1,188 nucleotides of DNA. Source: a phage. The translations under genes were made by a program, and so were the position numbers. The stretch is from the sequence record OR846228.1; one strand, 5' to 3'. This document shows, piece after piece, positions 1 to 1,188 of the stretch. Each line of letters opens with the position of its first letter. Position 1 is the first letter of the stretch. Under the pieces are notes generated by a model that had not been told where the DNA came from, did not search any database, and saw only the letters and a list, made by a program, of their open reading frames with translations.

Positions 1-55
1 TTCTTCGAATCCCGATTCCCTGAGCTGTTAAAGCTGCTCGATACCGTTCATTGAG

Positions 56-1051
56 GTGACCGTGAGAGCACTACTGACTCCTGAAATTGCCCCGCGTATG
101 GGGATCGTATTGTTCAGACCCGGTTCAGAGCTGATGCCCCTGTTTATGCAGGGGCGTGTCCTGCTGGAGCCTGAGCCGGAACGTTATTCATCTTTCGCCA
201 GTGGTGCCGTTCCGGCGGCATCACAACCGCTGGCGGATGATCCTGCCGTTCGGGCCGTGTTCCGCAATGAGGCAGTGATCCGTCGTGCTGGTGGCGTGGA
301 ATGTCTTGAAAGCTGGTTACTTCGTGAAAAAGGCTGCCAGTGGCCTCATTCCGACTGGCACAGCGAGAACATGACCACAATGCGACACGCTCCGGGCGCA
401 ATCCGTCTGTGCTGGCACTGCGATAACCAGCTGCGCGATCAGTTCACGGAACGGCTGGAATCAATGGCAACGGATAACTGTGCCCGCTGGGTGTTGTCTG
501 TTGTGCGTCGGGATCTCGGTTTTGATGACAGTCACGTTGTGACAATGCCGGAACTGTGCTGGTGGCTGATTCGTAATGACCTGGCGGATGCCTTACCGGA
601 AAGTGCAGCCCGTAAGGCACTGAGATTACCAAAGCCTGTTGTGCCGTCTGTCACCCGGGAAAGTGACCTTGTGCCTTCGGTTCCTGCCACCAGCATCATC
701 CAGGATAAAGCGAAAAAGGTGCTGGCGCTGAAAGTGGATCCGGAGTCGCCGGAGTCTTTTATGTTACGCCCAAAACGTCGCCGCTGGGTTAATGAAAAGT
801 ACACGCGCTGGGTTAAGACACAGCCGTGGGCATGTTGTGGAAAGCCCGCTGATGATCCCCACCACCTGATAGGCCACGGTCAGTGTGGAATGGGTACAAA
901 AGCGCATGACCTTTTTGTGTTGCCTTTGTGCAGAAAGCATCACGACGAGCTGCATGCGGATACCGTGGCATTTGAAGAGAAGTATGGCTCTCAGCTGGAG
1001 CTGATATTTCGTTTTATCGATCGTGCGCTGGCAATTGGCGTACTGGCGTAA
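56..1051 (+). CDS. Uncharacterised lambdoid-prophage protein, DUF968 / YdfU-like family; Cys/His-rich, possible HNH-like nuclease domain at C-terminus
   Basis: Longest ORF in the window (331 codons, GTG 56 to TAA 1049-1051), in frame with stop TAA 29-31 upstream. All four minus-strand ORFs are nested antisense within it. It sits immediately upstream of a Q-antiterminator homolog, matching the ydfU-quuQ arrangement I recall from the E. coli K-12 Qin prophage. Conserved-looking C-terminal motif WACCG...DPHH...GHGQCG...LCRKHHDELH. Start codon is uncertain: GTG 56 is the first canonical start but has no well-spaced SD; alternatives are GTG 62 and ATG 98. Family assignment is from memory, not a search. 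Confidence 0.8.
   Translation: MTVRALLTPEIAPRMGIVLFRPGSELMPLFMQGRVLLEPEPERYSSFASGAVPAASQPLADDPAVRAVFRNEAVIRRAGGVECLESWLLREKGCQWPHSDWHSENMTTMRHAPGAIRLCWHCDNQLRDQFTERLESMATDNCARWVLSVVRRDLGFDDSHVVTMPELCWWLIRNDLADALPESAARKALRLPKPVVPSVTRESDLVPSVPATSIIQDKAKKVLALKVDPESPESFMLRPKRRRWVNEKYTRWVKTQPWACCGKPADDPHHLIGHGQCGMGTKAHDLFVLPLCRKHHDELHADTVAFEEKYGSQLELIFRFIDRALAIGVLA
596..688 (+). repeat. Imperfect in-frame direct duplication within the CDS (cGGAAAGTG...TTGTGCCgTCtGT / gGGAAAGTG...TTGTGCCtTCgGT), encoding PES...VPSV and RES...VPSV
   Basis: Read directly: the 9-mers c/gGGAAAGTG at 597-605 and 657-665, and TTGTGCC followed by near-identical bases at 639-652 and 669-682. The encoded VPSV tetrapeptides are exactly 10 residues apart (aa 196-199 and 206-209). 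Confidence 0.55.
740..757 (+). repeat. Tandem 9-bp in-frame repeat CCGGAGTCG / CCGGAGTCT encoding Pro-Glu-Ser twice
   Basis: Read directly: 740-748 ccggagtcg, 749-757 ccggagtct; translation DPESPESF (aa 228-235). Confidence 0.7.
782..816 (+). repeat. Exact 11-bp direct repeat CGCTGGGTTAA, copies 24 bp apart and in frame, encoding R-W-V-(N/K) twice
   Basis: Read directly: cgctgggttaa at 782-792 and 806-816; protein RRWVNEKYTRWVK (aa 242-254). Confidence 0.7.
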
Positions 1052-1064: not shown

Positions 1065-1188
1065 ATGAACTTTGAAGCCTTACCGAAATATTACTCCCCA
1101 AAATCTCCAAAATTGAGCGATGACGCACCGGCGACAGGCTCTGGTGGTTTAACAATTACGGATGTGATGGCTGCGCAGGGGATGGTGC
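1065..1188 (+). CDS. quuQ: Lambda Q-family late-gene antitermination protein, N-terminal 41 codons only (continues beyond window end)
   Basis: ATG 1065 preceded by GGAG at 1054-1057 (7-nt spacer). Translation MNFEALPKYYSPKSPKLSDDAPATGSGGLTITDVMAAQGMV aligns without gaps to the lambda Q N-terminus as I recall it (MRLESVAKFHSPKSPMMSDSPRATASDSLSGTDVMAAMGMA), sharing the SPKSP and TDVMAA-GM blocks and roughly half of positions. Symbol quuQ is given by analogy to the Qin prophage Q homolog; the exact ortholog is not verified. Confidence 0.85.
   Translation, partial: MNFEALPKYYSPKSPKLSDDAPATGSGGLTITDVMAAQGMV

Follow-up and report, generated by a model that had tools for sequence, protein, structure and literature searches.

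The locus and its DUF968 gene

The subject here is a stretch of phage DNA of 1188 nt (sequence record OR846228.1), called the window throughout, whose + strand carries one complete gene. The gene encodes a two-domain lambdoid prophage protein of the YdfU/DUF968 family. Near the C-terminus of this protein, encoded by nt 827-955, is a cluster of Cys and His residues that had been likened, by eye and from the sequence alone, to the metal finger of HNH nucleases. These nucleotides are highly likely to specify the central part of a zinc-stabilised nuclease domain of the HNH type (beta-beta-alpha-metal, His-Me finger), with which the protein ends. The likeness has been borne out by family profiles, by a beta-beta-alpha structural model, by conservation and by a profile alignment to Gp16 of phage phiNM1. 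The genes of the window are these:

1..54, + strand: 3' end of a KilA-N domain gene (stop codon TGA at 52-54), placed from the annotation of the homologous locus in Escherichia coli C325
56..1051, + strand: open reading frame (ORF) of the DUF968 protein of the YdfU family, 331 amino acids (aa) from GTG 56 or 329 aa from GTG 62
1065..1188, + strand: 5' end of the gene for antitermination protein Q (ydfT-like), placed from the annotation of the C325 locus and of phage records

The homologous locus of E. coli C325, the early-right 'nin' region of a lambdoid prophage, is 99.1% identical to the window and has the gene order RusA, KilA-N, DUF968, Q (ydfT), tRNAs and lysis genes. Phage lambda carries NinG/Rap, a His-Me finger nuclease, at the corresponding nin position directly upstream of Q. 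DNA nearly identical to the window is found in 74 phage records, most of them from Stx2-converting phages, and a DNA match is present in 3,725 of 5,426 complete E. coli genomes (about two thirds).

The coding sequence annotated by RefSeq in strain C325 (WP_001365028.1) corresponds to window 62-1051. Because a GAGG at 53-56 stands 5 nt ahead of GTG 62, the RefSeq start, GTG 56 is probably unused. GTG 62 is the likelier start and the protein is probably 329 aa long. Residues are numbered here from GTG 56; RefSeq numbers are two lower.

Family membership

The HNH nature of the C-terminus of DUF968/YdfU proteins is already known and published. The zinc-finger HNH motif of DUF968 was pointed out by Curtis et al. 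(2014; PMC4118853), and Jablonska et al. (2017; PMC5714182) put DUF968 together with DUF1364 in group 7 of the His-Me finger proteins. They named YdfU and YbcO (Protein Data Bank, PDB, entry 3g27) in this group, remarked on the RusA and Q neighbours and proposed a role in recombination like that of NinG and the RecA-dependent nucleases. A nuclease function for YbcO was predicted from its treble-clef fold (Kaur and Subramanian, 2016; PMC4999995).

The window protein fits this family closely. Translation of window 56-1048 (+) gives exactly WACCGKPADDPHHLIGHGQCGMGTKAHDLFVLPLCRKHHDELH at residues 258-300, the string that the sequence-only reading had reported. This string lies inside a match to Pfam DUF968 (PF06147) that covers aa 162-328 and profile positions 2-171 of 171 (E 8e-78; 260.8 bits against a gathering cut-off of 27.8). 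It also lies inside a match to PHROG 96, 'HNH endonuclease', that extends over the whole protein length (E 5e-174). Therefore, the motif is not a chance pattern. RefSeq entries named 'DUF968 domain-containing protein' are 98% identical to the window protein, and the homologs from phages cdtI and mEp460 are labelled 'HNH endonuclease' in the same database. A scan of the protein against NCBIfam gave no match. Compared with DUF968/YdfU of the Qin prophage, the window protein has the same two-domain length (~330 aa) and the same neighbours, RusA and Q; the window copy differs only by Trp in place of a conserved Cys at position 258 and by a minority polymorphism, G277C.

How does the protein stand to the neighbouring nuclease families? 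Against Pfam HNHc_6 (PF16784) the full protein scores 21.6 bits and the C-terminal domain 24.5, below the cut-off of 26.6. The match is confined to profile positions 129-184 of 204, and the N-terminal domain differs, which places the protein outside HNHc_6. For RecA_dep_nuc the window domain gives E 0.11 and 13.1 bits against a cut-off of 26.9. YbcO/DUF1364 is not listed in the Pfam scan of the window domain, and phmmer of the domain against YbcO 3g27 gives E 0.018. In scans of 55 diverse members HNHc_6 is matched by 38 (best E 1.7e-8), RecA_dep_nuc by 23, all sub-threshold, YbcO weakly by nine (best E 0.013), HNH by five and HNH_5 by two. On these profile scores the window protein classes as a plain DUF968 member that is related to HNHc_6, RecA_dep_nuc and YbcO and, because the scores fall below their thresholds, belongs to none of them.

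Fold of the C-terminal domain

The domain in question can be delimited as follows:

788..1036, + strand: C-terminal HNH / His-Me finger domain (aa ~245-327)

A profile built from 55 diverse domain sequences served to gather broader homologs, and aa 225-331 were modelled with AlphaFold2 (AF2) from a 67-sequence alignment. The model has a mean predicted local distance difference test score (pLDDT) of 89.7 and a predicted template modelling score (pTM) of 0.78. According to DSSP it consists of a helix (247-254), a knuckle around 257-264, a strand (267-270) that ends at H270, a 17-residue loop (271-287), a second strand (288-291), a helix (293-301) that carries H295, H296 and H300, and two more helices. 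Its least confident part is the loop block 275-284, with a mean pLDDT of 79 over 10 residues. The sequence-only reading had suggested structure prediction as a check on its topology, and a beta-beta-alpha unit is indeed present in this model, so the predicted domain has the topology of an HNH nuclease. A full-length AF2 model, built from a 22-sequence alignment of close homologs, was discarded for the motif; its mean pLDDT was 60 and its core, residues 268-287, fell below 50.

Foldseek of the domain model against the PDB returned nothing significant, the best entries being Cas5-HNH and IscB (E 0.8-1.4), with RING-type treble clefs lower. P1 Ref is the best structural match of the domain, followed by the HNH domains of TagI and Cas9. 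When the family profile was compared with PDB sequences, YbcO (E 0.01) and the HNH domain of McrA (E 0.086) were found, with the HH, the D and the LC..CH..LH elements in register.

Conservation and a residue map

A search with aa 225-331 against 1.84 billion cluster representatives gave 2,135 matches at E<=1e-3. Conservation was tabulated over the 112 motif-spanning sequences among the best 150 of these 2,135 matches, all of them representatives of 50%-identity clusters. The motif elements map to the window as follows:

827..838, + strand: zinc knuckle CxxC (C258-A-C-C261 in the family, W258-A-C-C261 in the window), aligned with C145/C148 of Gp16
854..865, + strand: beta1, D267-P268-H269-H270 (DSSP strand, model residues 43-46); H270 is the predicted general base and H269 a predicted metal ligand
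884..886, + strand: C277 (TGT) in the beta1-beta2 loop, a lineage polymorphism and no family ligand
908..910, + strand: D285, standing where the HNH motif has its central Asn
917..928, + strand: beta2, V288-L289-P290-L291 (DSSP strand, model residues 64-67)
929..958, + strand: C292-R-K-H295, the second half of the zinc site, followed by H296 and H300 (helix, model residues 69-77)

Two sets of residues can be told apart by their behaviour. The first comprises the DPHH dyad, in which H269 and H270 are each conserved in 109 of the 112 sequences, together with D285 (110), H296 (107) and H300 (103); these five are thus ~92-98% conserved, and K282 is found in 105. The second comprises position 258 (Cys in 100), C261 (81), C292 (85) and position 295 (His or Cys in 78). 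These four positions are linked, and the CxxC...CxxH co-varies as a unit: about 69 of the 112 have CCCH or CCCC. A separate zinc-less subclass has lost the ligands together, typically having S-S-T-E or C-T-x-E instead, and it retains D/E267, H269, H270, D285, H296 and H300. Because positions 258, 261, 292 and 295 co-vary, and because the other set is kept when they are lost, one structural zinc site is predicted that is distinct from the catalytic site. We infer that this zinc site is formed by C258-x2-C261 and C292-x2-H/C295, and that H269, H270, D285, H296 and H300 make up the catalytic set.

The map changes some details of what had been proposed by eye. Conservation was to be the judge of the proposed metal-site residues, and the core residues, among them the HH dyad and C292, are conserved. 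The CC pair survives by half, in that C261 is a family zinc ligand whereas the position of C260 is variable (Cys in 36 and Val in 31 of the 112). C277 is not a metal-site residue of the family; the position is Gly in 83 sequences, Ser in 19 and Cys in none. The terminal element had been given as C-x3-HH-x3-H, which is a misreading, the actual arrangement being C292-x2-H295-H296-x3-H300. Finally, the reading by eye overlooked that position 258, where the CxxC knuckle has its canonical first Cys, is Trp in the window.

Individual positions also agree with those of other HNH proteins. H270, which ends the modelled strand beta1, aligns with H157 of Gp16 and with the conserved His of YbcO. H296, H300 and D285 align with the CH..LH of McrA and with H185 and H189 of Gp16, in agreement with the helix ligands and the central residue of the superfamily. 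D285 itself is aligned with the D of the McrA TDN (one residue before the Asn), the D of the YbcO PPDL and a conserved Asp of Gp16 (hyDk). The spacing HH-x14-D-x10-H-x3-H resembles that of colicin E9, HH-x14-N-x8-H-x3-H.

Characterised relatives

Gp16 of Staphylococcus aureus phage phiNM1 is a RecA-dependent nickase in which a NinB-like domain is fused to an HNH domain (PMC12817073, 2026). The HNH domain contains a CxxC (C145, C148), a CxxH (C181, H184) and the residues H157, H185 and H189. Gp16 binds RecA, and its cleavage is enhanced by RecA. Growth inhibition and nucleoid condensation are abolished by the substitutions C148A, C181A and H184A, and plasmid nicking in vitro is lost in C181A (PMC12817073).

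Does the window family resemble this protein closely enough for the comparison to be useful? A profile-profile comparison with HNH proteins was among the checks that the sequence-only reading had put forward. In hhalign the family profile aligned to Gp16 (sequence from phiNM1 record L002:4052-4723) with 95.2% probability and E 2.7e-8. The register pairs 258 with C145, 261 with C148, 270 with H157, 292 with C181, 295 with H184, 296 with H185 and 300 with H189. The motif CxxC-x8-H ... D ... CxxHH-x3-H agrees residue for residue, and both are early-region phage genes near RusA. Gp16 scores 4.9e-117 with HNHc_6 and also reaches 29.1 bits with DUF968, above the gathering score of 27.8. However, there are differences. 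The N-terminal domain of Gp16 is NinB/Orf-like, whereas that of the window protein is an unrelated domain that contains Cys and His residues; beta1 has AH in Gp16 and HH in the window; the identity of the cores is ~32%; and the host of phiNM1 is Gram-positive.

Other relatives are more distant. P1 Ref, an HNH nuclease that depends on RecA, binds two Zn2+ ions (PMC4330346). In its structure (PDB 3plw) one metal of the HNH core is structural and the other sits in the active site, an arrangement that is also predicted for the window domain. The resemblance is structural only, with Pfam RecA_dep_nuc below cut-off, and the N-terminus of Ref is basic and disordered whereas the window protein has a folded N-terminal domain. 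YbcO (E. coli DLP12 / phage 82, 3g27) shares the GxGTK...D loop and the C-x2-[C/H]-H-D-E helix start and is likewise encoded by a nin-region gene. However, it is a 96-aa single-domain protein with weak sequence matches to the family (E 0.01-0.02), and it differs in the helix pair (CxxC, against CxxH in the window), in beta1 (AH against HH) and in the spacing of the knuckle. As for lambda NinG/Rap, Pfam NinG had no match in scans of the window protein or of the 55 members, and NinG belongs to His-Me finger group 24, as opposed to group 7 for DUF968 (PMC5714182). It is plausible that NinG/Rap is a positional and functional analogue of the window protein.

The comparison allows a tentative mechanism to be sketched. 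A structural Zn2+ held by C258, C261, C292 and H295 would pin beta1 and its hairpin against the helix. The general base that activates a water molecule would be H270, the last residue of beta1. H296 and H300, probably together with H269, would bind a catalytic divalent metal, and D285 would stand in for the Asn of the motif. Metal-dependent nuclease activity is demonstrated for the homologs Gp16 and Ref only, and by analogy the window protein would share it. Because of the position of the gene, the neighbouring RusA and the likeness to Ref and Gp16, the most likely activity would be nicking of DNA in recombination or replication intermediates, possibly when these are bound by RecA or in conjunction with RecA.

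The Trp258 variant

One aspect that sets the window apart is the codon TGG at 827-829 (Trp258), where the other examined copies have TGT or TGC for Cys. The window copy has three of the four ligands of the zinc-finger HNH subclass, a shortfall that is limited to this copy and does not extend to the family. Between the window ORF and that of strain C325, its nearest relative, there are 8 differences, all in third codon positions. Seven are synonymous, and the change T>G at nt 829 (C258W) is the sole non-synonymous one.

How rare is this change? Cys258 is present in 21 of 21 close homologs and in the cluster representatives aligned there, with one apparent exception. This exception, protein P0002, was rejected as a second example of W258: it contains an internal duplication, the local alignment across which produced an artefact, and the residue is in fact Cys. 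Among the 112 representatives only two, P0166 and P0254, have an aromatic residue at 258, and both are visibly degenerate. The 61-mer around nt 829 has no exact match at 1,990 places in complete E. coli genomes, nor in 35 phage records. A 32-mer with W258 has no exact match in GTDB genomes, IMG/VR or JGI metagenome contigs, while the control 32-mer with TGT has at least 120 matches in IMG/VR. The exact window protein was looked up and is not on record. W258 is a private change in the collections examined.

If the base call is real, the W258 copy may be impaired in zinc binding and in activity. A weakening or loss of function is predicted because three of the four equivalent ligands of Gp16 are individually essential. 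C277 was considered as a compensatory ligand and rejected as the main reading. The exact 61-mer with Cys277 is found in 140 of 1,626 E. coli records, O157:H7 and O26:H11 strains among them; there C277 co-occurs with C258, as it does in strain C325. Since C277 is already present beside C258 in relatives, it is no compensation for W258.

Weighing the explanations

A zinc-stabilised HNH nuclease domain is the favoured reading, and several points weigh against it. The nuclease activity, the substrate and the RecA dependence of the enterobacterial YdfU group are extrapolated from homologs. Even in Gp16 the classical catalytic roles of the His residues are not cleanly established, because H157A (equivalent to H270) is still toxic and H185A and H189A relieve toxicity only in part (PMC12817073). 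The Gp16 zinc ligands that were substituted are three of the four, and C145, which is aligned with 258, is not among them (PMC12817073). Family members lacking the zinc ligands exist, so that the fold can do without zinc if other changes accompany its loss. Moreover, W258 could be a sequencing error.

This last point can be enlarged into an explanation of its own. Perhaps the window simply contains an ordinary, fully functional HNH gene of the YdfU type, with the G at nt 829 introduced in error during sequencing or assembly. W258 is unique among thousands of near-identical copies, it results from a single-base change in a third codon position, and the rest of the ORF has only synonymous differences, as under purifying selection. 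However, nothing in the window points to low-quality sequence: it is free of frameshifts, and its other 10 differences from C325 resemble ordinary polymorphism. In addition, private inactivating mutations are frequent in prophage genes. On balance an error seems somewhat unlikely, if well worth bearing in mind.

What if the domain has the HNH fold and yet no nuclease role, serving instead as a zinc-finger module by which a regulator binds DNA or protein? Some homologs bear the label 'phage transcriptional regulator', one member of the family being annotated as a transcriptional regulator in the literature (PMC5714182), the gene adjoins KilA-N and Q, and the toxicity of Gp16 leans more on its zinc-finger residues than on its histidines (PMC12817073); the extrapolated nature of the nuclease role in YdfU-type proteins leaves room for the idea. 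However, the catalytic signature is 92-98% conserved and is kept even where the zinc ligands are gone, the reverse of the pattern expected if the zinc finger were purely structural, and Gp16 and Ref are demonstrated nucleases (PMC12817073; PMC4330346). A purely regulatory module is therefore quite improbable.

More doubtful still is an active W258 copy in which another Cys, either the adjacent C260 (W-A-C-C) or C277, serves as the fourth zinc ligand: the window has both, YbcO has Cys at the positions aligned with 260 and 277, and three-ligand zinc sites completed by a water molecule are chemically possible, but C277 predates W258 and lies in the loop that was modelled with least confidence, and among the 112 diverse homologs position 277 is never Cys, just as 258 is never Trp.

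Linker and N-terminal domain

The remainder of the protein is divided as follows:

221..625, + strand: N-terminal domain (aa ~56-190), without annotation; pLDDT 80-92 in the full-length model
335-337, 359-361, 410-412 and 419-421, + strand: codons of the N-terminal motif residues C94, H102, C119 and C122
626..787, + strand: linker rich in Pro, Ser and Lys (aa ~191-244), predicted to be disordered; pLDDT <50 for aa 194-248 in the full-length model

In the model the N-terminal domain contains a beta-hairpin (106-111/114-119) followed by a helix (120-126). Diverse full-length homologs conserve C94, [H/C]102, C119, W120, [C/H]122 and D123, and the C94/[H,C]102/C119/[C,H]122 site is followed by D123-N124. 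A profile of this domain gave only chance-level matches against the PDB and Pfam, and the domain is a candidate for a second zinc module of treble-clef or His-Me-like type. The domain is probably non-catalytic, because H111, the His that ends its first strand, is not conserved.

The arrangement invites the thought that YdfU-type proteins are tandem double His-Me finger or treble-clef proteins, with the N-terminal domain a degenerate duplicate that recognises a DNA structure or a partner such as RecA. The idea is a distinctly unlikely one. Alignment of the N-terminal with the C-terminal HNH domain in hhalign is colinear and weak (2.8% probability, P 0.016), too weak for an internal duplication to be claimed. 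If the tandem arrangement were true, the private C258W would amount to a knockout, provided by nature, of the zinc site in the catalytic copy.

Unusual copies of the gene are also present in public data. Three E. coli sequences of 406-526 aa (P0001, P0002 and P0003) are DUF968 proteins with internal tandem duplications of 75-200 residues. One duplication junction reads KTQP|HAPGAIRL, and the duplications could be real or assembly artefacts. Separately, ...CCLWAESITTSYM at the end of the representative P0166 is similar to the translated out-of-frame window ORF 885..1004 (+). Because of this resemblance, it is suggested that frameshifted, decaying copies of the DUF968 gene are present in public data.

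Significance

The general significance of the finding is small, in that DUF968/YdfU has long been classified as a His-Me finger and is labelled HNH endonuclease in phage databases. What is added here is a map at the level of residues, in which a predicted structural zinc site (258/261/292/295) is separated from a predicted catalytic site (269/270/285/296/300). A further addition is the link to Gp16, a newly characterised RecA-dependent nickase, which suggests a concrete and testable function. The gene concerned is carried by about two thirds of complete E. coli genomes, Stx-converting prophages included. The W258 allele, if real, would be a ready-made natural zinc-ligand mutant.

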